Positions 8,690 through 64,000 of a DNA stretch of 64,000 nt are shown here, piece after piece. The stretch comes from Squalus acanthias (lineage: Eukaryota), in contig CM059426.1 in assembly GCA_030390025.1 (NCBI GenBank), forward strand, positions 176,328,001 through 176,392,000, read 5' to 3'. The stretch's first letter is position 1; each line of letters starts with the position of its first letter. The position numbers were made by a program, and so were the translations under genes. The notes below the pieces were generated by a model. It was not told the DNA's origin. It saw nothing but the letters and a program-made list of their open reading frames with translations, and ran no database searches.

Positions 8690-9951
8690 TTGTGCCCGCT
8701 CTCCCGGGCTCCCGCTCTCCTGGGCTCCCGCTCTCCTGGGCTGCCGCTCACCGTTAGTAGCTCCGAACTCTCGCTCTCTCCTGGGCTCCCGCTCACCTTT
8801 AGAGCGCCGAACTCTCATGCTCTCCTGGGCTCCCGCTCACCTTTAGTAACTCTGAACTCTAGCGCTCTCCTGGGCTCCCGCTCACTTTTAGTGACTCCGA
8901 ACTCTCCCGCTCTCCTGGGCTCCCGCTCACCTTTAGTAGCTCCGAACTCTCCCGCTCTCCTGGGCTCCCGCTCACCTTTAGTAGCTCCGAACTCTCGCTC
9001 TCTCCTGACCTCCCGCTCACCTTTAGTAGTTCCGAACTCTCGCTCTCTCCTGGGCTCCCGCTCACCTTTAGTAGTTCCGAACTCTCGCTCTCTCCTGGGC
9101 TCCCGCTCACCTTTAGTAGTTCCGAACTCTCGCTCTCTCCCGGGCTCCCGCTCACCTTTAGTAGTTCCGAACTCTCGCTCTCTCCCGGGCTCCCGCTCAC
9201 CTTTAGTAGTTCCGAACTCTCGCTCTCTCCCGGGCTCCCGCTCACCTTTAGTAGTTCCGAACTCTCGCTCTCTCCTGACCTCCCGCTCACCTTTAGTAGT
9301 TCCGAACTCTCGCTCTCTCCTGACCTCCCGCTCACCTTTAGTAACTCTGAACTCTCGCGCTCTCCCGGGCTCCCGCTCACCTTTAGTAGCTCCGAACTCT
9401 CGCTCTCTCCTGACCTCCCGCTCACCTTTAGTAACTCTGAACTCTCGCTCTCTCCTGGGCTCCCGCTCACCTTTAGTAGCTCCGAACTCTCGCGCTCTCC
9501 CGGGCTCCCGCTCACCTTTAGTAGTTCCGAACTCTCGCGCTCTCCTGGGCTCCCACTCACCTTTAGTAGCTCCGAACTCGGGCTCTCTCCTGGGCTCTCG
9601 CTCACCTTTAGTAGCTCCGAACTCTTGCGCTCTCCTGGGCTCCCGCTCACCTTTAGTAGTTCCGAACTCTTGCGCGCTCTCCTGGGCTCCTGCTCTCCGT
9701 TAGTAGCTCCGAACTCTCGCGCTCTCCTGGGCTCCCGCTCACCGTTCGTAGCTCCGAACTCTCGCTCTCTCCTGGGCTCCCGCTCACCATTAGTAGCTCT
9801 GAACTCTCGCGCTCTCCCGGGCTCCCGCTTACCTTTAGTAGCTCTGAACTCTCGCGCTCTCCCGGACTCCCGCTCACCTATAGTAGCTCCGAACTCTCGT
9901 GCTCTCCCGGGCTCCCGCTCACCTTTAGTAGCTCCGAACTCTCCCGCTCTC
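8690..9951. repeat. 45-bp tandem array (~26-27 units) forming the 5' end of the CR1
   Basis: Unit CTCCCGCTCACCTTTAGTAGTTCCGAACTCTCGCTCTCTCCTGGG; 15-aa periodicity in the ORF track. Confidence 0.95.
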
Positions 9952-16065: not shown

Positions 16066-16655
16066 GGCCGGAATTGTGCTGGCGCTCGGAGGAGGTCCAC
16101 TGTCAACTGTCAACCCACCTCCATGTCAGTAACGTTTCGTGATCTATTGAGATCATTGAAAGGTTTGTGCTACTGCAGCCTGGTCCTCCTGGCGACATCC
16201 CTGCTTGTGTCCTCCTGTGCAATGTGCAACCAGGCTGCGTTGATCTCCTGGGGAGGTCTCTTCTGCCCATTGGAAGGGAAGAGAACCTCCCTGCGTTCTG
16301 TGACTTCCTCCATAAGCATATGGAGGGAGTCATGGGAGAGCCTGGGTGCAGCCGTGCACCTTTGTGCAGTGCTTGTCAGTGTTTGCAGCACCTCAGTGCT
16401 GTAGAACACTGATAGCACAACTGTCAAAATGAATGTGGACATGATCCCTTTAAGGAAACTGGCTGCTGATGCGTCATCAAATGACGTCATCAGACCCGCT
16501 TCCCTTTAATTGGCTGGGAACCTCGCAGGGCGGGCTTAACAAGCCCAATCAACAGTAAATTCTTCTCACAGAGTGGGATGGAGCCGGGAGCGGGGTCCCA
16601 ACCTGCCACCTACCTCAGCTGCATTGAGCCCACCTCAGTAGGCGAAATCGTGGCC
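16066..16655 (-). mobile_element. Harbinger deletion derivative carrying a degraded Myb/SANT first exon
   Basis: Termini GGCCGGAATT / rc GGCCACGATT, TSD AAG (16063-65, 16656-58) within a CR1; peptide APRLSHDSLHMLMEEVTERREVLFPSNGQKRPP..AAWLHIAQE resembles 59868-60107. Confidence 0.8.
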
Positions 16656-21407: not shown

Positions 21408-21869
21408 GGGCTGGATTTTACCTTAGATCCGGAGGTCGAGGCGGGACTGCTGGTTTTCGGGTTCCAATCCCGCCCCCAGCGACGTCTGACGAACAAACGT
21501 TATTTTCCCTTGACTGGCCTTGTTAAGCCCGCCCTGCCGGCTTGACGGCCAATTAAGGGAAAGCCGGTGTCAGATGACGTCAGTGCATGACGATTCATCT
21601 GACGGTTTTGTTAGTGACAGGCACCATAATTTTTTGACAGATGATTTGACAGTGTTTGACAGCATTGAGCTGTTAACAGGCAGTTAATTGGCTCTAATCC
21701 CCTTCCCGCCACTAGGAGACAGGTCCCTGCACAAATCGGTGACCCGCCTCCCGGGAAGATCGTTTGGAGGTGGGTTGGGCGTGGGTTCGGGACCCGCTCC
21801 CATTTTTTACCATTTTGCCACCGGTCCTGCCTCCAAACCTGCCCCTTGAGCACCGGCAAAATCCCCCCC
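21408..21869. mobile_element. Harbinger-type MITE, 462 bp
   Basis: TIR GGGCTGGATTTTACC / rc GGGGGGGATTTTGCC; TSD ATA; removing it restores the CR1 peptide NRGIEYKS. Confidence 0.88.
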
Positions 21870-23689: not shown

Positions 23690-24560
23690 CTCCTCCTCCT
23701 CCAGATGCTCCATAGTTATGTGTCGTTGGATTATGAAGTTGCAGATTATTGCAACAGATCACTGTGATCCTGGAGACTTTCGCTGAGTTACATGTAGCTA
23801 ATGCTTTGCTATTTCAAGGTATCTGAACCCTGCTTCAAGATTCTGTAACGTATTCTACGATGGCTGCCTGCATCTCGCTGCATCTGTGCTCGGTAGCTGT
23901 TCGAGTTCTTAAGAGTCAGGGCTCGAGGGGTCTCCGAGGAAGCATTCTTGCACTGTTTCTTGTGAATCAAATAATGAGGCCACACTAGAATGCCTTAAAA
24001 TAAAGACTGTTCTGACTGCCTGGGAAGCAGGCATTGACCTGCATTATCCCACGGTGATGAGGTGAATGTTGTGGTTCATTAATGTGAAGCTATTGTGCAC
24101 AACAGCCGTTATGGACACACGGGGGCCATCAATGATGCTCTGCACTTTGGGGAGTCCTACTATTTGGAAAAATGTTGTGCCCTCTCGTGCTGTTGACAGT
24201 TGTCCATGGGAAATACGATGCCGGAGCAAACAACTGTATTGGTCACCTGCTTGATTCATCTTTGTACTGAGGATCGATTGACTGTTGCTGATGTCCCCTG
24301 TAGCCTGTCAGAACTAGCCTGGGTGTAAAAGTTAAGTGCTGTGGTGACCTTGACAGCTGTTGGCAGTATTGTGCCTGTGGGAGAGTTTGGCTGGAGGCTG
24401 TGTCCTAGAGTAGGCTCAACTCTGCCACAGCCTCTCTCACCAATCACAGTCTACGGGGACATAGTTCCTCAGAAAACTCCAGGTTACGTGTGCCTCTGGG
24501 TATGCATTGGGTTCGCAGCCTCAGGTAATGGTGGGTGTGGGCTGACTTCCTCAGGTGCAC
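23690..24560 (-). pseudogene. Degraded PIF/Harbinger (HARBI1-like) DDE transposase
   Basis: Fragments LPTAVKVTTALNFY (HTH region), GLPKVQSIIDG (first catalytic D motif, cf. GFP.V.G.IDGTH), and a LKQ.FR.L-like stretch near 23810-23850; many stops and frameshifts. Confidence 0.7.
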
Positions 24561-27536: not shown

Positions 27537-30500
27537 TCTCGAGGGCTGGGGCGGAGGGGTCTCGGGCGGAGGGGTCTCAAGGACTCGGGCGGAAGGGTCT
27601 CGGGGACTGGGGCGGAGGGGTCTCGAGGGCTGGGGCGGAGGGGTCTCGAGGGCTCGGGCGGAGGGGTCTCGAGGACTCGGGCGGAGGGGTCTCGAGGACT
27701 CGGGCGGAGGGGTCTCGAGGACTCGGGCGGAGGGGTCTCGGGGACTCGGGCGGAGGGGTCTCGGGGACTCGGACGGAGGGGTCTCGGGGACTCGGGCGGA
27801 GGGGTCTCAAGGACTCGGGCGGAGGGGTCTCGAGGACTCGGGCGGAGGGGTCTCGAGGGCTGGGGCGGAGGGGTCTCGAGGGCTGGGGCGGAGGGGTCTC
27901 GAGGACTCGGGCGGAGGGGTCTCGAGGGCTGGGGCGGAGGGGTCTCGAGGGCGGAGGGGTCTCGAGGGCGGAGGGGTCTCGAGGGCGGAGGGGTCTCGAG
28001 GGCGGAGGCGGAGGGGTCTCGACTCGAGCAGAGGGGTCTCGGGGACTCGGGCGGAGGGGTCTCGGTCGGAGGGGGTCTCGATGACTCGGGCGGAGGGGTC
28101 TCGGGTGGAGGGGTCTCGAGGGCTGGGGCGGAGGGGTCTCGAGGGCTGGGGCGGAGGGGTCTCGAGGACTGGGGCGGAGGGGTCTCTCGGGCGGAGGGGT
28201 CTCGAGGACGGGGCGGAGGGGTCTCTCGGGCGAAGGGGTCTCGAGGGCTCGGGCGGAGGGGTCTCGAGGGCTCGGGCGGAGGGGTCTCAAGGACTCGGGC
28301 GGAGGGGTCTCGGGGACTCGGGCGGAGGGGTCTCGAGGGCTGGGGCGGAGGGGTCTCGGGGACTGGGGCGGAGGGGTCTCGGGGACTGGGGCGGAGGGGT
28401 CTCGGGGACTGGGGCGGAGGGGTCTCGAGGACTCGGGCGGAGGGGTCTCGGGGACTCGGGCGGAGGGGTCTCGAGGGCTGGGGCGGAGGGGTCTCGGGGA
28501 CTGGGGCGGAGGGGTCTCGGGGACTGGGGCGGAGGGGTCTCGAGGGCTGGGGCGGAGGGGTCTCGAGGACTCGGGCGGAGGGGTCTCGAGGACTCGGGCG
28601 GAGGGGTCTCGAGGACTCGGGCGGAGGGGTCTCGAGGACTCGGGCGGAGGGGTCTCGAGGACTCGGGCGGAGGGGTCTCGAGGACTCGGGCGGAGGGGTC
28701 TCGAGGACTCGGGCGGAGGGGTCTCGAGGGCTGGGGCGGAGGGGTCTCGAGGGCTGGGGCGGAGGGGTCTCGAGGGCTGGGGCGGAGGGGTCTCGAGGAC
28801 TCGGGCGGAGGGGTCTCGAGGGCTCGGGCGGAGGGGTCTCGAGGGCGAGGTCTCGAGGGCGGAGGGGTCTCGAGGGCTGGGGCGGAGGGGTCTCTCGGGC
28901 GGAGGGGTCTCGAGGACGGGGCGGAGGGGGTCTCGAGGACTCGGGCGGAGGGGTCTCGGGCGGAGGGGGTCTCGATGACTTGGGTGGAGGGGTCTCGAGG
29001 GCTGGGGCGGAGGGGTCTCTCAGGCGGAGGGGTCTCGGGGACTGGGGCCGAGGGGTCTCGAGGGCTGGGGCGGAGGGGTCTCGACTCGGGCGGAGGGGTC
29101 TCGAGGACTCGGGCGGAGGGGTCTCGGGGACTCGGGCGGAGGGGTCTCGAGGGCTGGGGCGGAGGGGTCTGGAGGGCTGGGGCGGAGGGGTCTCGAGGAC
29201 TGGGGCGGAGGGGTCTCGAGGGCTGGGGCGGAGGGGTCTCTCGGGCGGAGGGGTCTCGAGGACGGGGCGGAGGGGGTCTCGAGGACTCGGGCGGAGGGGT
29301 CTCTCGGGCGGAGGGGTCTCGAGGGCTGGGGCGGAGGGTCTCGAGGGCGGAGGGGTCTCGAGGACGGGGCGGAGGGGGTCTCGAGGACTCGGGCGGAGGG
29401 GTCTCTCGGGCGGAGGGGTCTCGAGGACGGGGCGGAGGGGGTCTCGAGGACTCGGGCGGAGGGGTCTCTCGGGCGGAGGGGTCTCGAAGGCTGGGGCGGA
29501 GGGGTCTCGAGGACTGGGGCGGAGGGGTCTCTCGGGCGGAGGGGTCTCGAGGACGGGGCGGAGGGGTCTCGAGGACTCGGGCGGAGGGGTCTCGGGCGGA
29601 GGGGGTCTCGATGACTCGGGCGGAGGGGTCTCGAGGGCTCGGGCGAAGGGGTCTCGAGGGCTCGGGCGGAGGGGTCTCGAGGGCTCGGGCGGAGGGGTCT
29701 CTCAGGCGGAGGGGTCTCGGGGACTGGGGCGGAGGGGTCTCGGGGACTGGGGCGGAGGGGTCTCGAGGGCTGGGGCGGAGGGGTCTCCAGGACTCGGGCG
29801 GAGGGGTCTCGGGGACTCGGGCGGAGGGGTCTCGAGGGCTGGGGCGGAGGGGTCTCGGGGACTGGGGCGGAGGGGTCTCGAGGGACTCGGGCGGAGGGGT
29901 CTCGGGGACTCGGGCGGAGGGGTCTCGAGGGACTCGGGCGGAGGGGTCTCGGGGACTCGGGCGGAGGGGTCTCGAGGGCTGGGGCGGAGGGGTCTCGGGG
30001 ACTCGGGCGGAGGGGTCTCGGGGACTCGGGCGGAGGGGTCTCGGGGACTCGGGCGGAGGGGTCTCGAGGGCTGGGGCGGAGGGGTCTCGAGGGCTGGGGC
30101 GAAGGGGTCTCTCGGGCGGAGGGGTCTCGAGGACGGGGCGGAGGGGGTCTCGAGGACTCGGGCGGAGGGGTCTCGGGCGGAGGGGGTCTCGATGACTCGG
30201 GTGGAGGGGTCTCGAGGGCTGGGGCGGAGGGGTCTCGAGGACTCGGGCGGAGGGGTCTCGAGGACTCGGGCGGAGGGGTCTCGAGGGCTGGGGCGGAGGG
30301 GTCTCGAGGGCTCGGGCGGAGGGGTCTCGAGGACTCGGGCGGAGGGGTCTCGAGGACTCGGGCGGAGGGGTCTCGAGGGCTCGGGCGGAGGGGGTCTCGA
30401 GGGACTCGGGCGGAGGGGTCTCGGGGACTCGGGCGGAGGGGTCTCGGGGACTCGGGCGGAGGGGTCTCGAGGGCGGAGGGGTCTCGAGGACTGGGGCGAA

Positions 30501-33033
30501 GGGGTCTCTCGGGCGGAGGGGTCTCGAGGACGGGGCGGAGGGGGTCTCGAGGACTCGGGCGGAGGGGTCTCGGGCGGAGGGGGTCTCGATGACTTGGGTG
30601 GAGGGGTCTCGAGGGCTGGGGCGGAGGGGTCTCTCAGGCGGAGGGGTCTCGGGGACTGGGGCCGAGGGGTCTCGAGGGCTGGGGCGGAGGGGTCTCGACT
30701 CGGGCGGAGGGGTCTCGAGGACTCGGGCGGAGGGGTCTCGGGGACTCGGGCGGAGGGGTCTCGAGGGCTGGGGCGGAGGGGTCTGGAGGGCTGGGGCGGA
30801 GGGGTCTCGAGGACTGGGGCGGAGGGGTCTCGAGGGCTGGGGCGGAGGGGTCTCTCGGGCGGAGGGGTCTCGAGGACGGGGCGGAGGGGGTCTCGAGGAC
30901 TCGGGTGGAGGGGTCTCGAGGACTGGGGCGGAGGGGTCTCTCGGGCGGAGGGGTCTCGAGGACGGGGCGGAGGGGGTCTCGAGGACTCGGGCGGAGGGGT
31001 CTCTCGGGCGGAGGGTCTCGAAGGCTGGGGCGGAGGGGTCTCGAGGACTGGGGCGGAGGGGTCTCTCGGGCGGAGGGGTCTCGAGGACGGGGCGGAGGGG
31101 TCTCGAGGACTGGGGCGGAGGGGTCTCGAGGACTGGGGCGGAGGGGTCTCTCGGGCGGAGGGGTCTCGAGGGCTGGGGCGGAGGGGTCTCTCGGGCGGAG
31201 GGGTCTCGAGGGCTTGGGGGGAGGCGTCTCTCGGGCGGAGGGGGTCTCGGACTCGGGCGGAGGGGTCTCGGGCAGAGGGGGTCTCGATGACTCAGGTGGA
31301 GGGGTCTCGAGGGCTGGGGCGGAGGGTCTCGAGGGCGGAGGGGTCTCGAGGACGGGGCGGAGGGGGTCTCGAGGACTCGGGCGGAGGGGTCTCGGGCGGA
31401 GGGGGTCTCGAGGACTCGGGCGGAGGGGTCTCGGGCGGAGGGGGTCTCGATGACTCGGGCGGAGGGGTCTCGGGTGGAGGGGTCTCGAGGGCCGAGGGGT
31501 CTCGAGGGCTGGGGCCGAGGGGTCTCTCGGGCTGGGGCGGAGGGGTCTCTTGGGCTGGGGCGGAGGGGTCTCTCGGGCGGAGGGGTCTCGAGGGCGGAGG
31601 GGTCTCGAGGGCGGAGGGGTCTCGAGGGCGGAGGGGTCTCGAGGACTCTGGCGGAGGGGTCTCGAGGGCGGAGGGGTCTCCGGGACTCGGGCGGAGGGGT
31701 CTCGGGCGGAGGGGGTCTCGATGACTCGGGCGGAGGGGTCTCGGGTGGAGCTGTCTCGGGGACTCGGGCGGAGGGGTCTCGAGGGCTGGGGCGGAGGGGT
31801 CTCGATGGCTGGGGCGGAGGGGTCTCTCGGGCGGAGGGGTCTCGAGGACGGGGCGGAGGGGGTCTCGAGGACTCGGGCGGAGGGGTCTCGGGCGGAGGGG
31901 GTCTCGATGACTCGGGTGGAGGGGTCTCGGGTGGAGGGGTCTCGAGGACTGGGGCGGAGGGGTCTCTCGGGCGGAGGGGTCTCGAGGACGGGGCGGAGGG
32001 GTCTCGAGGACTGGGGCGGAGGGGTCTCGAGGGCGGAGGGGTCTCGAGGGCTGGGGCGGAGGGGTCTCTCGGGCGGAGGGGTCTCGAGGGCTGGGGCGGA
32101 GGGGTCTCTCGGGCGGAGGGGTCTCGAGGACGGGGTGGAGGGGGTCTCGAGGACTCGGGCGGAGGGGTCTCGGGCGGAGGGGGTCTCGATGACTCGGGTG
32201 GAGGGGTCTCGGGTGGAGGGGTCTCGAGGACTGGGGCGGAGGGGTCTCTCGGGCGGAGGGGTCTCTCGGGCGGAGGGGTCTCGAGGACGGGGCGGAGGAG
32301 TCTCGAGGACTGGGGCGGAGGGGTCTCGAGGGCTGGGGCGGAGGGGTCTCTCGGGCGGAGGGGTCTCGAGGGCTGGGGCGGAGGGGTCTCTCGGGCGGAG
32401 GGGTCTCGAGGACGGGGCGGAGGGGGTCTCGAGGACTCGGGCGGAGGGGGTCTCGAGGACTCGGGCGGAGGGGTCTCGGGCGGAGGGGGTCTCGATGACT
32501 CGGGCGGAGGGGTCTCGGGCGGAGGGGTCTCGAGGGCTGGGGCCGAGGGGTCGCGAGAGCTGGGGCGGAGGGGTCTCGAGGGCTGGGGCGGAGGGGTCTC
32601 GAGGGCTGGGGCGGAGGGGTCTCGAGGGCTGGGGCGGAGGGGTCTCGAGGGCTGGGGCGGAGGGGTCTCTCGGGCGGAGGGGTCTCTCGGGCGGAGGGGT
32701 CTCTCGGGCGGAGGGACTCTCGGGCGGAGGGGTCTCGAGGGCGGAGGGGTCTCGAGGACTCTGGCGGAGGGGTCTCGAGGGCGGAGGGGTCTCGAGGGCG
32801 GAGGGGTCTCGAGGACTCTGGCGGAGGGGTCTCGGGCGGAGGGGTCTCGAGGGCGGAGGGGTCTCGAGGGCTGGGGCGGAGGGGTCTCGACTCGGGCGGA
32901 GGGGTCTCGGGGACTCGGGCGGAGGGGTCTCGAGGACTCGGGCGGAGGGGTCTCGGGGACTCGGGCGGAGGGGTCTCGGGGACTCGGGCGGAGGGGACTC
33001 GGGGACTCGGGCGGAGGGGTCTCGAGGGCTGGG
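27537..33033. repeat. 5.5-kb G-rich, CpG-rich minisatellite; main unit 23 bp GGGCGGAGGGGTCTCGAGGACTC / ...GAGGGCTG with 15-18 bp variants
   Basis: Directly visible tandem repetition. Confidence 0.97.
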
Positions 33034-33088: not shown

Positions 33089-33344
33089 GAGGGGAGTCAA
33101 GGACAGCTCCTGGTCCTTGGTGCCACAAATCGTCCTCATGCCATCGATCCAGCGCTTCGGAGGCCTGGACGATTTGATAAAGAAATAGAGATTGGTATCC
33201 CTAATGCTGGAGACCGTGCAGATATCTTGAGGAAGTTTCTGAAGAATATTCCCACCTTGTTGACTGAGGCGGAGCTGGTACAGCTCGCAGATGGGGCTCA
33301 TGGTTATGTTGGAGCAGACCTGGCAGCAGTCTGCAAGGAAGCAG
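33089..33344 (+). CDS. AFG2A: AFG2A/SPATA5 exon with sensor-1 and arginine finger ([38 protein letters not shown]...[16 protein letters not shown])
   Basis: tttttAG acceptor, GTAACT donor; 256 bp, phase 0/1; [15 protein letters not shown] second region of homology. Confidence 0.95.
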
Positions 33345-56401: not shown

Positions 56402-57674
56402 ATATCATTATTACTTACTGAATGTATCTCAAGATGATGTTGCATGTTTGCACAGACCAGAAGCGTGACTTGATTCTTAATGGTAATTTGCAAAACTATT
56501 TCAGTGACCTGTGACCAGTTGTAATCAATAAAGTGGATACTGATACTGTGCTTCTTGCAGCACACAGGAAAAGATTTCACTGATCTTTTTAGGTGCATAC
56601 TGGCATGGACCTCCAGAGCAATCAAAGCAACAGAACCTTTATTTCAGGATGTTGAAATATATTTTAACTATGATTTGTGTACACAAAGTACCTTACTGTA
56701 CTTGTGCTCCTGTGGTGTTTTAGGGTGGCACTGAGGTATCAAGAGCCAGATCTTTAGGCCATAGTTATGGTTCCCAAGGAGCCATTCAGTCTCTTTGTTG
56801 AAAGAGCATTGGCAAGATTGACTGAGTCACAATAAAGGAGCTGTGAGAGGAGCCAAAGAAGTTGGCAGTCACTTGCATGCTTTCATGCTTCATGTTGAAG
56901 GAATACTATCCTTTGTGATCAAGTATTATGCCTTCATGCTTGCCCAACACTCCAAGGACCCGGAGGAATCCAGTGACGGGCTAAAAACTGGTTATATCCA
57001 CTTCTCAGTAGGAGTCCATGCATCATTTCATCAAAATTGTACATTGTGTACTGTGCAGTGCCAGATGTTGGTGACGGCAACTCTAAAGATTTTTCAGCTT
57101 GTGGTTTTTCTCAACAGCTTCCTCTCTATTCTTCTCCGTATTCCTGTTCCTCTGCTGTTGTAACTGAAAGGGCTTGATTTTGCCAGGCACGAGGAGGCGG
57201 GTTTGGAGGCATGTGAGGTGGTAAAATCGCAAAAAATGGCGAGTGGCTCCGATCCCGCCTCCGAGCAATTTTCCCAGAATTGGGGTTTCAGACCCCGTTT
57301 CCAGGCGGGATAGGCCCTTAAGGCCCTTAACCACCACTTAACTGCCTCTATAATCCAATTTTGAGAGGCCTTTCTAATTTTTAGACATTTCCCTCATCCG
57401 ACACGCCTCCTCTGGAACACGCCAGTTAATCCTGGCGGCCTCACAAGTGGATTGCTTACTAACAGCTGCAGCTCCACCATTAAAAAGGAGTTTTCAGCAA
57501 TCATCATTTGCAGGTGGCAAAACTTTGTTGGCTCAGGTCTGGGGGAACTTTTAGCAGGCCTACTCATTGTTGTGGAAGTTTGGAGCCTGAGACCCATCTC
57601 CCATGTGACCTCCTGGGAAACCCCTCTCCCCACCTTGACTGAGCGCTTCCTCAACTGAGGTATATAGCAGAAGC

Positions 57675-57900
57675 ATGGGAACCATTTATTTCCTTTCCTC
57701 CTGGACATCAGATTTGGACGAAGACCAGCCGCGGCAGCAGCAGAACCCTGAACAACAGCACCACCAACAGCAGGAGCAACAACAGGAGCGCCAAGCTGCT
57801 GCTCACCCACCTGAAGCTGCACAGGCCAGAAGGCGCCAGCGCGCGACCACATTGCTGCCCGGGATGCAAGGGACGCACTCATGTTGGCCAGATTTACTTA
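57675..57900 (+). pseudogene. Possible N-terminal stub of the Harbinger transposase ORF (acidic, Gln-rich, then RRRQR)
   Basis: Lies convergent to the Myb gene near the left TIR, where the transposase normally sits; no DDE motifs follow. Confidence 0.35.
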
Positions 57901-58152
57901 GCCTGCACAATCAAACACTTTTGTCTCGCACCTTCTTACCAGAGCATCGACAATGGACAAGAACCTGCGGACTCCTATCACTCTGACCACCATACTGACA
58001 ATTGCAAGTCGCCCTAAGCCCTCAATGTGAAAGTCCCATTTGCGAAATGACACAGGCCACAACTTCAACAGTTTGCCATTAAATCTGTTTATGATACCAT
58101 GACAAGGATGGCTGGTCCAAATACAATACACCACAGCACCCTACCCTTGTGA

Positions 58153-60107
58153 CTACTTGTGCTTTATCTTCCTCTTACGCATGCTCTTACATGGTGCTTC
58201 CCCTGTGGCTTCAGCAGATGTGGAGGCCCCTTGCTCACTTTCTTGCTGCTCCTGTCTCGACGCCTTTGGCGGGCATCCTCTGGGGTTGTGAACCTGTGAG
58301 GGCTCGGCAACAATCTGCTTCTCCTGTGGCTGTGCAGGGTCTGAGACGCCCATCTCAGTTGGGTGAGGACTCTGGTGGGGCTCTGACCGAGGGCTTTGCA
58401 GTGGCATGGTTGTGTGAGCGCTTGGAGAGGAGCCCCCACTTCCTTGTTGTCTGCCACCAACATCCCTCTCATGGGTCAGCCCCACTTCAGAGCTAGCAAG
58501 TGGCTTGACAGCACCTTGCTGCACTGCAGGGGGGCCATGAGGACCCGTTTCTGCACTGGAAGTCCTACTCCGGAGGACTTCCATGAAGGTCTGGTTTCTC
58601 TGCTCAATAGCTGACCATCGCTCCTCAAGAGATGTCATTCTATTCTGAACAATGACCACGTTTTCAAGACCCTGGCGACTAAGCTCCTCCATGGCCGTAG
58701 CCAGCCTCTCCTCTACGGTAGCCAGCTTTACCACGGAGGTAGCCATCCTTTCCACGGAGGTTGCCATCCTTTCAGCGGTGATGCGTTCATGTGCCAATGC
58801 CTCCACAAAGGCTCTGCTCATGTTTGCGATGGACTCCTCCATGCGCTCCACACTCGCAGCGACCCTGGAGACAAAACCTGCCAGAGATTCCTGCACCTGT
58901 TCCTGGAGTTCCAGCACCGCTCTCCTTCTGGATGGACCCGGAGGCACAGGGTCGACATGCAGCTGAGCCGAGCTGGCAGAGTCCTGCGCCCTCCGACAAG
59001 GACTCTCCACTGCTGTCCCTGTCTCCACCATCTGCTGATGCTCACTTGTGAGCTGTGATACACCAGGTGCCAACACTACTCTATCTCGTGAAGGTCCCAC
59101 TGAGGTGTGAGTGTCTGCGCTGGTGCTGGGTGCGCTGAATTCTGCTGACGCTGCGCCCTCAGAGGATGCAGCTTCCTCTGAGGAGTCTGGAGGCTCAGGC
59201 TGTTCCTCCTGGACAGTGGGGACGGGGGCTATCGATGGTCCTGTGGGGAAGTAAAGGAAAGAGTTAGAGATGTGAGGTCAAGGTTACATGAACATTGAAT
59301 AGTGCAGATGATCATAATTCAATCTGTTAGAGCATCAAAATCATTATCAGTAACTCATGCAATGTCAATGAGAGAGATGCCAAACTATTCTGTTACCAGC
59401 TTGCTGTGATGCGCCCATCTGTTCGTCCCCCACTTGGGAATTGTCCTCGATTTCCAGGGCCGCCTCCTCCCAGGCGGTGAGCTGGGCTACTGAGGGTGGC
59501 CCTCCTCCTGTCATGGCTCTTTCCCTCTTATTGTGGGCTCTCTTTTCCTGCAATGAGGGACACAAGTGGAGTCTGAGTGAGAATGAACGAGTGAGTGTAG
59601 ATAATCCATAGCATAGATGCTTAGAAGGAGACAAAGGGCCCTCCCTGTGTGTTGTAAGTAGTTGTTGTTGTTGCATCACAGTGATAGGGAGTGAGGGCTA
59701 CATGGTTGAATAGTTAAGTGAATGTGACCATAGAGAGAGAGGGAATGGGTAAGGGTGCAGGGATGTCAGTGTCAAGTGGGATGTGGAGGAAGAGGTTGGC
59801 AAAGCAGAGTGCTGGTGAGGAGAGGCGATGGGGATCAGATTGAGGGTGATGGGGAAGTCATACTCACTTTTCCTGCGCGGAGAAGGTCATGAAACCTCTT
59901 CCTGCATTGCAGCCAGGTTCTGCGACTCGTCAATATGGAGTTGACCTCCTGGGCCACTTGCAGCCACACAGCTTTAGTCTGCTGGGGTGGCTTTTTTCTC
60001 CCTGAGGAAGGGAAGAGCACTTCCTTATTGGATCTTGCTCCCTCCACCAGAGCTTGGAGGGAGGGCTCATCGAAGCGTGGAGCACACTTTGGCCTACTGG
60101 TGGACAT
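58153..60107 (-). CDS. Three-exon Harbinger Myb/SANT-like DNA-binding protein, ~492 aa: join(60107-59868, 59547-59397, 59240-58153)
   Basis: ATG at 60107; APRFDEPSLQALVE...W..VA..VN....RTWLQCRKRFHDL trihelix Myb motif; GTGAGT/CAG phase 0 and GTAACA/CAG phase 1 introns; TGGGPP motif; no stops in the joined frame; basic C-terminus. Confidence 0.85.
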
Positions 60108-60825
60108 AGTCAATCAATGAAGTGCTTACTACAATGGCCATAAAGTTTGCAGTCTCCAGAAGAAGCAAGGCTGCTTGCAGGCCTTAAATCCAGTAGCATT
60201 GATGACGTCATCGGAGGCGACTTTCTGTATGAAAAGACTCATTGGGCCTGGGGTTCCCACACGCTGGAAATCAATTGCCCAATTAGGGGAAAATCGCACT
60301 TTTTCCCCACTTCACTTCGGAGTCGGGGTCCTGACACGAATGCCACCTGACACGCCCCAGCCCGCCCACACTGGCAAAATCGAGCCCATAGTATCACTAA
60401 TGCATGTGAGCACTGCACTGATGAAAAGATTCTGAACTCCGAAATGTGAGAGGGGATTGAGTATTTAATTGGAGAGTGGTATTTAAAACGACTTCAATTA
60501 TGACATAATTGCCTTGATTAGTATTTGAATCAATATAGAGTATTTCATGAAAGCTGTGGGAAATTTATTGGCTGTAATTACTGTAAGTGAGGAAATAGTG
60601 TGACAAAGATACCACAGTGAGCATGAAGTACAGTAATTACCCCAGTCAGGATAATCCAGCAGAATGTCTGCAGGTTTGATAATGTAAAAGGAGGAGAAGG
60701 GTGTCATTGTTGTTTCTTTGGAGAAGAATGGTGGTTTAAGGGCAGTATGGGGTTTTGGAACCTGAGTTCCATGCGCTGCCTGCCACTCTTCCCCAATGAA
60801 GCCTCATCCTGTGGTAAAGTTCTTC

Positions 60826-62810
60826 GGGGGAATTTTAACCCCGAGAGTAGGTGGGTTGGAAGCAGGTGGGGGGGTGGTTAAAACTTTTTGTGTTTTAGAG
60901 CAGGAGCACAACCTGGCTCCAACATGCCCACTTCTGGGTTTAACAGAGGCCCATTAGGATGCCGGCAAGAAACCTACTTGCCGAAGTCAGGATTTAATTG
61001 TTGGATGCGGGCGGGTACTTATTGGGGCTATTAATGTCTTTAGGAGATGCTAATGAAGCATTTTTAAATTGCTTTTAACTTGGCTCCAAATTTAACATGA
61101 GCAGCTTAGGTTTCCCGGGGCTCAGGAAACTGACCAGAGAAACGGAGGTGATTTTGAACATCAGTTCAAGTGGGTATTTAAACTTGTCATTGTCCCAACT
61201 GAATAAAAGCTCACTTATTGCAGCTGCTGTCTCCGTTCCCTCTGGCAAATGTTTGGCAGAGAGTGCTTGTGTGGATATAGCTTTTTTTCCAACTGTGGAG
61301 GATTTCAAAGAAACGAGAGCAAGATGTGAGGCACCTTGGATGTGTTTGACAACACATCAGAAGAGGAAGACCATCACCATCCACGGCAGTGCTGATGTGC
61401 TGTGGTGGGGTCAGCACCTGCAAAGGAGGGAGGTGCACAGGAGAGGGGCCGAGGTCAAATTTCTCGGATTTGGCTCTCTGGCTAGATTCCCAGGGTGCCA
61501 TCGACTGCACACACGTGGCTTCCTACTGCGTCTACGTGGTGCATCCTGTGTGGCTTCAGCAGAGGTAGAGGCAGGCTGCTCAGATCCCTGCTCTGACTGC
61601 TGAGATGCTCTTGGCCTTCGCCCTCTGGGTTTTGGAGTCTGTGAGGGCCCTGCCAAAGACTGCTGCACCTGCACCTGTGCAGGGGGCAGACTCGGCCATC
61701 GGGAGAGGAGGCAGCATGTCAGGTACTGGCGGTGGGGAGAGGGGCAACGAGTAAGAGGTGGGAGTGCTTTGAGTGGAGTTCCCACTTCCATGTCTCCTTT
61801 CACCATCCCTCTCCTGGGCCAGCGCCACATCATCCTACCATTCTGCTGCAAACCAGCTTGGTGGAGATCAGTGGCGCATCATAAGGCCATGGATACAATA
61901 TCTATCCTGTTTAAGGCAGCAGACATCTCCTGCATGGACGTGGTCATGACCTGCATGGACTCATTTGAGAGCCATGCTTGAAGCTCCACGGAGGCGGCCA
62001 CTCTCTCCATTGCAGACATTCTCTCAATTCCCTGCACCACAATCCATTAGCGATTGAGTTGGACTCCTCCACCTTGAGAGTGTGTGTGGCTCTTTTGTCA
62101 GTACCTGACTAAGTTTCTGATGCACCTCTAGCATTCTCCTTCTTAATATTAGCCCCTAGAGTTCAGCATCTGTGTCCAGCTGAGCAGAGCTTGGAGAGGA
62201 TTGTGCCCCACGACACGGACCCTCCACAGCTGTCCCTGCCATCAGGGTCTGCTCGTGCTCACTTGTGAGGTGTGAATCACCAGTTGGACCCACCGAAGTG
62301 TGAGTATCTGCGCTGGTGCATGGATGTAGGTGCATCCTCAGAAGGAATGAGGTCTTCTGAGGGATTATCCTCATGGATATCCTGCAACACTAGCTGTATG
62401 CGAGAAGGCTCTGGAAGACAAAAGAAAGGGATATGATATTAGTTGTGGTAAAGTCACAATCTTGACAATTACCATACTCTGTCTTCTCATCGTTCAGTCA
62501 TCGATGAAATAAAGTCGGCTTATGTGTGTCAGAGATATTTGTAATTCTGTCACCTGCTATCTGGGAGCTCCCTGTCTCTCCATCTCCGACTGAGAGGGAC
62601 ACAGATGTGCCACTTATCTCCAGGGACTCCTCCTCTGTATTAGTGAGCTGGACTATTTGTGATGGCCCACCTTCCTCTCCCTTGTGTTTTGCACACTCTT
62701 ATAAGGGGTGAAAAAACAGAACTGTGAGTGAAGGTGAGGTATTTACCCGATGGATGCAGTGCATTCGTGAGGGCGACTATGAAACAGATGCATCGTATTG
62801 CATAAGGATT
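60826..62810 (-). mobile_element. Second, degraded Myb-bearing Harbinger element (exon 2 and 3 remnants), cut by an LTR-like insertion
   Basis: Left end GGGGGAATTTTAACCCC; peptides ADTHTSVGP...LTSEHEQ..MAGTAVEGPCRGAQ and PRGRRPRASQQSEQGSEQPASTSAEAT match the 58153-59240 protein; stops and frameshifts. Confidence 0.75.
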
Positions 62811-64000
62811 TGTAGGTGGTTTGCCTTGGTGGTTCGAATCACCTCTCCTACTTAGTTCTCGACGACAGGAATTACGGTGAACAGGATTGGGACACAGACA
62901 AGCTTTTCGGACTCAACCGTACGGTGTTTAATAAGGTTAACATACACACCCGCCTCCAGTACGTAAAATGCCTGGTGGCGTAAAACAAACAGTACAACAA
63001 TACAACTTGGCCCGTCGAACAGGCCCCTGTCTCGTATTAAGACGCCTAAAATCACACTGTGTTGCTATACAGAGTATAACATGGACTTGTCCCACAAACC
63101 CCGGAACATACACTAGATAATACACACAGAACCTCCCCACTAAACCCCTCTGGATTGGTTGAGACACACAACACCCCCTCACACAGTACCGGTGGTCTTA
63201 AGGATGCGTGGGCTTGGACAATGCTCACCCCGATTGTCCGTTTTCTTGCTCGCTGCTCCCTTGTGTGGAACGTGTCTCCTGGTTCCGTATCGCCGATGCA
63301 GTATCCAAGTCCCAGTTTCGAGGTTCGTTCCTGCAGTCGAAGAGCAAGGCGAGGCTCTTGTCACTCGTGGTAGTTTCTTCTCTCCATCTCGGACGGAGTG
63401 CTCGGTTCTTGGTAGCAAGCGAGAGAGAGAGAGAGAGAGAAATGGCCAAAGCTGCCTTCTCTGTATACCCTAAAAGTTAATTCAAGTCTGTGTATTGCAG
63501 TGATGTCTTTTAAATCACCCTTCTTTGTCTGATTCCCTCCTTTTCGAGTCTGGGCCTTCCCCCAACTCTTGTATTCCAATACACACCCAGTAATCCAAAC
63601 CACAGGACATGTACAGGGCTGGGGGATGGAAGACAATTCCTTATCTTTATCTCCCCCTCCCTGTGGTACATATTTGATGTGATTTAGTCTTACTGCTGAT
63701 GTGTTTTGCCCAAGGTTAAAGTGTTTTTCATTGAGGCCAGGAAGTCCATTGTTCCAGCGAAACTGGCATCGTTGTCTTATCCATTGAAGATCCATCGAAA
63801 CCCATTAAAACACGAAGTCTCATTGTCCAAAGTTAAATCATCTATTCACCGTTAAATCACCCATCGAGACGCTCATTGTCCAAAGTAAATGTCTTTTCCA
63901 TAGTTAAATTGAAACTCACAGGTGTGTCTGTGCTTCTAGGTCCAACTGCACCACGCTCCTCTCACTGGGCCAAACAGGCTGCTGGTCCTTGGGGCCTGCG
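62811..64000 (-). mobile_element. Probable LTR of a retrovirus/LTR retrotransposon (runs off the window)
   Basis: Abrupt start TGTAGG (ACA-3' end on minus strand), minus-strand ATTAAA at 62927-62932, (CT)n tract near a TATA-like site at ~63465, short U3-like direct repeats CTCATTGTCCAAAGT at 63819 and 63872, CpG retained. Confidence 0.45.

Follow-up and report, generated by a model that had tools for sequence, protein, structure and literature searches.

Why would a Harbinger transposon that has lost its transposase still carry an intact gene for the partner protein? The question is raised by a 3,218-bp element at 57170..60387 of a 64,000-nucleotide stretch of the Squalus acanthias genome (assembly GCA_030390025.1, contig CM059426.1, 176,328,001 to 176,392,000; hereafter the window, whose coordinates are used throughout). 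In Harbinger systems both proteins are required, and the Myb-like protein binds the element ends and imports the transposase (PMC2836001, PMC9392472; papers are cited here by PMC accession, for the portions available). An earlier note on the window had described a spliced Myb/SANT gene between terminal inverted repeats (TIRs). It proposed either a half-autonomous family or a regulator or domestication intermediate. We searched the 3.7-Gb S. acanthias assembly and found that the element belongs to a Myb-only subfamily, which is 2-5 times commoner than its two-gene parent. In our estimate, the chance is about two in three (0.64) that the 3.2-kb element was moved by the parent's transposase in trans, with the Myb gene as a passenger.

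The window element is a non-autonomous derivative of the PIF/Harbinger group, on the grounds of its TIRs, a target-site duplication (TSD) of 3 bp within an extended target, a Myb/SANT gene and a DDE-bearing ancestor. It has the following features.

57167..57169, no strand: target duplication on the left side, AAA (ATA on the right)
57170..57186, plus strand: left TIR, then a subterminal motif of the GAGGAGGCGGG type, also present in sister families B and D
57675..57841, plus strand: codons 1-55 (and two further nucleotides) of the parent's 414-amino-acid DDE protein, from alignment with seven full-length copies
57675-57986: stub open reading frame, 103 amino acids, opened by the parent's first transposase codons
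57841..57842: junction left by an out-of-frame deletion of about 1.0 kb from the transposase core, with short imperfect CAGC-type homology
57842..57901, plus strand: final 19 transposase codons and stop, out of frame relative to the stub, from the parent alignment and the sequence
58153..59240, minus strand: Myb exon 3, 1088 nt, with linker, heptad region, basic tail and stop
58690..58773, minus strand: 21-nt heptad repeat (ERMATSV ERMATSV VKLATVE ERLATAM)
59241..59396, minus strand: Myb intron 2, GT..AG
59397..59547, minus strand: Myb exon 2, 151 nt, with the TGGGP linker and a private 9-nt in-frame deletion
59548..59867, minus strand: Myb intron 1, GT..AG
59868..60107, minus strand: Myb exon 1, 240 nt, with a Myb/SANT-like trihelix domain (PF13873, E 3e-9)
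60371..60387, minus strand: right TIR
60388..60390, no strand: right copy of the target duplication, ATA

The structural description in the earlier note was borne out. The 17-bp TIRs (57170-57186 and 60371-60387), called near-perfect, are complementary at 16 of 17 positions, and the flanking AAA and ATA represent a 3-bp target duplication carrying one mismatch, namely a mutated TSD. The three minus-strand exons (60107-59868, 59547-59397 and 59240-58153) join into a frame of 492 amino acids with a terminal stop only. GT..AG is present at all four claimed splice junctions. The translation includes the linker TGGGP, the heptads ERMATSV and the tail KSMRKRKIKHK. In a hidden Markov model search, exon 1 matched PF13873 (Myb_DNA-bind_5) with 37 bits against a cut-off of 21.7, and PF13837 scored below its own cut-off. 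The 9-nt deletion, which removes three codons, was absent from 22/22 other aligned copies.

No DDE core is present, as had been claimed; the parent's transposase aligned with the window element through residues 1-17 only. The convergent stub proved to be the ruined start of the transposase gene, in which 55 parental codons are followed by a frameshift. The 103-amino-acid stub had no Pfam match. Short open frames were found in all 150 scored stub matches (mostly 115 amino acids, maximum 206). Thus, the element is not an autonomous Harbinger, since about 1.0 kb of its DDE gene is deleted. Nor is it a miniature inverted-repeat transposable element (MITE) of the Tourist-like kind, which is short and non-coding, because it spans 3,218 bp and carries a 492-codon gene.

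The element has many relatives. At least 24 further copies, with at least 92% of the element covered at 90-94% identity, were found among the best 40 scored of 13,225 candidates. The 17-base TIR had 3,374 exact matches in the genome and its control had none. A perfect 3-bp TSD, mostly WWW, was present in 48/81 extracted elements, and the target of the TSD-bearing elements is a 13-bp palindrome, GA(C/G)(A/T)C-WWW-G(A/T)(C/G)TC, which is also the target motif used by the parent described below. Since the duplications lie inside this palindromic target, the copies spread by transposition. Four near-identical Myb-only copies (L027-L030, contig G000:C1626) share their flanks as well as one 0.5-kb insertion; these were duplicated together with their surroundings.

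The parent was found by TIR-anchored sampling, in which 40 loci were taken in the order of the TIR list. Elements of about 4.2-4.25 kb with two genes possess the same TIRs and agree with the window element as far as 57841; the agreement resumes at 57842, with about 1.0 kb between. Because they share the TIRs and match both sides of the deletion junction, they were identified as the parent. One of them (L108) has a natural open frame for a 414-amino-acid DDE_Tnp_4 transposase (PF13359, E 1e-34), and the transposase is open in 11/41 full-length copies. The number of heptad repeats differs among Myb-only and full-length copies alike (six length classes in 21-nt steps). The best PF13359 matches in the genome were also considered as candidates for the parent; the 20 inspected, of 150 listed, all belonged to other Harbinger families. 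PF13359 gave 63,886 first-look candidates genome-wide. Many open transposase frames of 385-392 amino acids, some with identical scores, were seen in other Harbinger families; therefore, younger Harbinger families exist in this genome.

The deletion is common to the subfamily. The same junction was found in 41/43 Myb-only copies, with one further copy carrying an extra small deletion and one unclear. In the genome, the deletion junction had 2,011 exact matches, compared with 1,077 for the parental junction; of the parental-junction matches inspected, 31/49 belonged to the family of the window element (family A) and 18/49 to a sister family. The 40 TIR-anchored loci contained 25 deletion junctions, 10 parental junctions and one unclear case. 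The exact search patterns fitted 14/25 of these deletion junctions and 9/10 of the parental ones. Extrapolated copy numbers are about 3,600 for the deletion form and about 750 for the parent, and the ratio in the direct sample is 25:10. The possibility of a single recent deletion, which the earlier note had named as fatal to its proposal, is thereby removed: this is an amplified family with one internal deletion. Contigs bridging the deletion junction were also found in sequencing runs of organisms coded B, C, D, E and F (organism codes, not family letters). One of these organisms may be S. acanthias itself, and the deletion is probably older than the divergence of the others, judging from these contigs.

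Myb-only and full-length copies are alike in age, with a median rare-allele load of 1.41% and 1.35%, respectively. Divergence from the commonest letter per column was 2.6-6.3% in 23 copies. Both genes were open in 0/41 full-length copies, and no sign of present activity was seen.

The mechanism that we favor is as follows. A 4.25-kb two-gene parent lost its DDE core in one shared deletion of about 1.0 kb, and the deletion spared the ends and the convergent Myb gene. Full-length copies then likely supplied transposase and Myb protein, which would have bound the ends common to both forms and mobilized the derivative. Borrowing of transposase in trans, which had been proposed for the window element, is required, as the element has no DDE core. 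The deletion and the mosaic structure described below likely arose by template switching while excision breaks were repaired. Template switching in gap repair has been described for P and Ac elements. A shorter length may have favored the derivative over the parent in number. In the rice system, both proteins work in trans, and mobility is higher for smaller elements (PMC2836001, PMC9921582). The source copies had open Myb frames, so they could have fed Myb protein into a common pool; a need for this contribution is not indicated by the data. In support of the passenger reading, derivatives in which Myb is partly or wholly removed were amplified too: the TIR-anchored loci included three 2.7-kb elements and four 0.7-kb, MITE-like elements.

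After insertion, the Myb-only copies decayed neutrally. We counted variants outside CpG columns; the omega values (non-synonymous to synonymous change) are derived from these counts and not from a tree-based model. Before counting, we excluded three repeats that were nearly identical and lay on a single contig, one copy with wrong bounds and one duplicate locus, together with 9/100 copies with interrupted Myb regions and the heptad codons 295-315. The 24 Myb-only and 16 full-length copies taken first had been chosen as best matches and not drawn at random. Private variants in 59 Myb-only copies comprised 483 non-synonymous changes, 141 synonymous changes and 31 stops (omega ~1.15). Disabling hits (stops and frameshifts) averaged 1.91 per Myb-only copy, for which a Poisson distribution predicts none in a fraction of 0.149; none was observed in 10/53 copies. 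An open frame together with the start and splice sites was kept in 8/53 Myb-only copies versus 5/38 full-length copies. The window copy itself has nine non-synonymous private changes, three of them in the Myb domain, and four synonymous ones, although these numbers are small. Thus, the window copy is likely an old insertion whose frame is open by chance. As for splicing, one contig omits intron 1 exactly, with 28 letters on the short side, and comes from a run, guessed to be RNA, of another organism. Removal of intron 2 was not among the 15 of 33 joints listed in runs guessed to be RNA, in which the introns were covered too; contigs from such runs are assignable neither to the window copy nor to Myb-only copies.

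Variants shared among copies gave a different picture, and it is these that weigh against a mere passenger. In exon 1, variants common to at least five Myb-only copies comprised 11 non-synonymous and 27 synonymous changes (11N:27S; omega ~0.13, p=6e-8). When only variants absent from the 41 full-length copies, or seen once in them, were considered, the count was 4N:9S (p=7e-4), and with 74 copies the confined variants of exon 1 were 5N:7S (p=0.002). The stub in the same copies was unconstrained (7N:1S and a stop common to 13 copies). No stops occurred among 51 Myb-only-confined variants at five or more copies, where only about two were expected, and no frameshift was common to four or more Myb-only copies. 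Furthermore, one diverged exon-1 type was present in nine Myb-only copies and in 0/41 full-length copies. Of the best 20 of 39 matches to this type, the deletion junction was found in 18. A script assigned 17 of these; the other is L349, which has a transposase match beyond its left end. Contiguous transposase was found in none of the same 20 matches, two of which have no left arm.

This signal is weaker when the threshold is lowered to four copies, where the novel variants of exon 1 were 9N:8S and included a start loss in four copies. Outside exon 1, in exons 2-3, confined variants were 17N:12S versus 316N:105S for private variants, a difference that was not significant (p=0.08). At fourfold sites, the exon-1 types differ by 14-39%, compared with 6-8% in exons 2-3. 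The elements have a mosaic structure made up of haplotype blocks, many of which also occur in full-length copies, and exon 1 was apparently swapped as a block between diverged lineages. Since the silent divergence of exon 1 is far above that of exons 2-3, its constrained differences probably came in by recombination, as older blocks. Because of this apparent exchange, the counts do not prove that the Myb-only form as such was under selection. In the whole-element tree the Myb-only copies did not form one clade; this tree was not used for ancestry, because the elements are mosaic. Thus, the comparison of dN/dS among copies that had been proposed as a check gave a divided answer: private variants are neutral, and the shared variants of exon 1 are constrained but confounded by block exchange.

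The strongest competitor of the passenger reading is a half-autonomous helper. According to this, Myb-only copies gained from their own Myb protein through end binding and transposase import, in a split two-part system whose transposase came from full-length or Myb-deleted elements. We consider this unlikely on balance, with a real chance of being right. The constraint on the confined exon 1 variants beside an unconstrained stub is what a helper would leave; the divergence of exon 1 makes imported blocks the probable explanation, and the four-copy result also counts against a helper. The sister families supply further evidence on both sides. Families A, B and D have a common subterminal motif. 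Family B (TIR GGGCTCGATTTTAAT) had 756 exact left-end matches and includes a Myb-only subfamily of 3.2 kb whose junction differs from that of family A, so that two independent Myb-only subfamilies were amplified in one genome; the second of these also speaks against the passenger reading. However, constraint in the family B Myb-only copies was not significant (omega ~0.61, p=0.39, n=27). A second form of family B, 2.4-2.65 kb long, retains the transposase and Myb exon 1 only, and accounted for 25/30 loci; the other 5/30 were full-length, and a complete two-gene element was found at 0/20 family-B left ends. In this transposase-keeping form, shared transposase variants were 10N:12S (p=0.013, n=19), and its transposase looks constrained. 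The forms of family B (L261-L280 and L299-L348) have left arms that are 87-90% alike and right ends that are only about 50% alike, which suggests that one of the forms is a hybrid of two families.

Family D (TIR GGGGGCGATTTTCCCA) supplied 18 of 40 parental-junction loci: four full-length, seven transposase-keeping with Myb deleted, and seven doubly deleted. The deleted loci are L181, L195, L207, L211, L216, L217 and L220 (G000:C1) and L187, L193, L202, L205, L206, L208 and L209. The Myb-deleted form (2.4 kb), from which most of the Myb gene is gone, and the doubly deleted form (1.4 kb) each outnumber the full-length elements in this sample, and the Myb-deletion junction was aligned and identical in 4/7 Myb-deleted elements. 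Elements that had seemed to be transposase-only copies with the same TIR as the window element turned out to be family D, whose TIR is different. B and D each independently amplified a subfamily that keeps the transposase and has Myb deleted; with the subterminal motif in common, these could serve as the other half of a split system. Precedents also favor a helper, since such an arrangement has been reported in C. inopinata (PMC13668399) and subunits of Ping and Pong complement each other although they are only 62% and 77% identical (PMC2836001). On the other hand, full-length parents are present for A, B (the 5/30 loci) and D. In family A, the loci sampled included no amplified partner that has the same TIR and transposase only, and no shared Myb deletion was seen at the parental-junction loci. 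Thus, transposase does not come solely from separate elements, as a split system would have it: full-length parents are common, and Myb-deleted subfamilies were found only in B and D. Of the half-autonomous family proposed in the earlier note, amplification and borrowing in trans stand, and the supply of a needed Myb subunit is only a possibility, as the parent makes its own Myb.

A broader possibility, which we advance tentatively and hold to be rather doubtful, is that this vertebrate Harbinger clade split repeatedly into complementary halves that share subunits in trans. Myb-only forms (twice) and transposase-keeping, Myb-deleted forms (twice) would have out-replicated their parents, with the Myb gene kept under selection and its DNA-binding exon exchanged.

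Surplus Myb protein from transposase-less copies could instead have occupied ends or titrated transposase, and thus have restrained the family in the manner of KP. Small P elements do encode repressors, for example, the 207-amino-acid KP protein (PMC7776569), and the Myb-only product retains the DNA-binding domain and the heptad repeat and outnumbers the parent. However, Myb is the normal required subunit of the parent and not a truncated transposase, neutral decay of the inserted copies does not fit host selection of a repressor, and the Myb-only form does not differ in age from the full-length one. We regard such damping as quite improbable.

The host gene bears on the remaining proposal. 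The window contains exons of AFG2A on the plus strand, at about 13.3 kb, 33.1-33.3 kb and about 52.3 kb, and the next exon lies about 6 kb beyond the window. One exon aligns with residues 489-551 of the solved protein.

33092..33283, plus strand: AFG2A exon, host context; the element sits in a later intron, past the exon at about 52.3 kb

From these positions and the strand, the window element is intronic and antisense, as had been stated: its minus-strand Myb gene lies in the intron between the exon at about 52.3 kb and the next one. It is highly improbable that the window copy is on its way to domestication or regulates AFG2A from the antisense strand, even with its open three-exon frame and location and with the known domestication of Harbinger Myb genes such as NAIF1 and MSANTD (PMC9392472): a domesticated gene would be single-copy without mobile ends and under purifying selection at its locus, and this copy is one of thousands, has both TIRs, carries 9N:4S private changes and a private three-codon deletion, and is open at the chance rate.

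An older Harbinger lies directly beside the element (60815-62835). It is about 80% identical to its relatives and its transposase core is missing, which looks like a private deletion, as most inspected relatives retain the transposase. The AFG2A introns contain further decayed Harbinger pieces at 56540-57001 (minus), 23879-24426 (minus), 16140-16361 (minus) and 21790-21863; these four are two transposase remnants, one Myb exon and one TIR-like end. Also intronic are a tandem array at about 8780-9800 with a 45-bp unit and a stretch with strong skew and about 75% G+C (28000-32000).

The closest known system is Harbinger-1M_cIno of Caenorhabditis inopinata (Sato et al. 2026), a MADF-only element that has expanded; its authors call this gene separation previously unreported (PMC13668399). 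Both elements have kept their ends and, of the two genes, just the one for DNA binding (MADF in the nematode, Myb/SANT in the window element), both outnumber transposase-bearing copies, and trans movement was inferred in both. The nematode has 19 MADF-only copies, one intact DDE-only locus and no intact two-gene copy, and laboratory activity was reported (PMC13668399). In contrast, the window subfamily belongs to a vertebrate, has over 2,000 copies that go back to a single junction, and hundreds of full-length parents, and shows no sign of present activity; its DNA-binding exon has undergone mosaic exchange, and its sister families contain amplified transposase-keeping derivatives. The parent resembles zebrafish Harbinger3_DR in its DDE_Tnp_4 and Myb-like genes, short TIRs, 3-bp TSDs and extended target preference (PMC2836001, PMC9179366, PMC9392472), whereas the window element differs from this type in having no DDE core. 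Like mPing and the Tourist-like MITEs of Ping/Pong, the window element is a deletion derivative, likely moved in trans, that outnumbers its parent (PMC2836001, PMC9921582); however, mPing is 430 bp and non-coding, and the window element is 3.2 kb with a whole spliced gene. KP of Drosophila, too, is a DNA transposon with an internal deletion that has left it coding for a DNA-binding product (PMC7776569), but this is a truncated, repressing transposase, whereas the window element retains a separate normal partner subunit for which repression is hypothetical. NAIF1 and MSANTD are also Myb-like genes of Harbinger origin (PMC9392472), although they are host genes, and the window gene is multicopy, TIR-bounded and neutrally decaying.

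A survey of teleosts reported no single-gene Harbinger in the portions available (PMC9179366), and a Myb-only class is not described in those of PMC5741667. Our literature search, outside supplements and repeat libraries (such as Repbase, where an entry is possible), found no vertebrate Myb-only Harbinger, and for complementary retrotransposons it gave nothing of relevance. Thus, the DNA-binding-only configuration is already known from a nematode (2026), and the window subfamily extends it to a vertebrate with thousands of copies.

The single locus is of little importance, and the interest lies in the family. For annotation it carries a warning, since about one in seven copies resembles an intact Myb/SANT gene by chance. 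The copies also form a large pool of raw material for domestications like those that gave NAIF1 and the MSANTD genes. Moreover, a subfamily of the same age as its parent, beside reciprocal deletions in sister families, makes it countable whether a two-subunit transposon gains by splitting its genes or whether gene-keeping derivatives hitch-hike.

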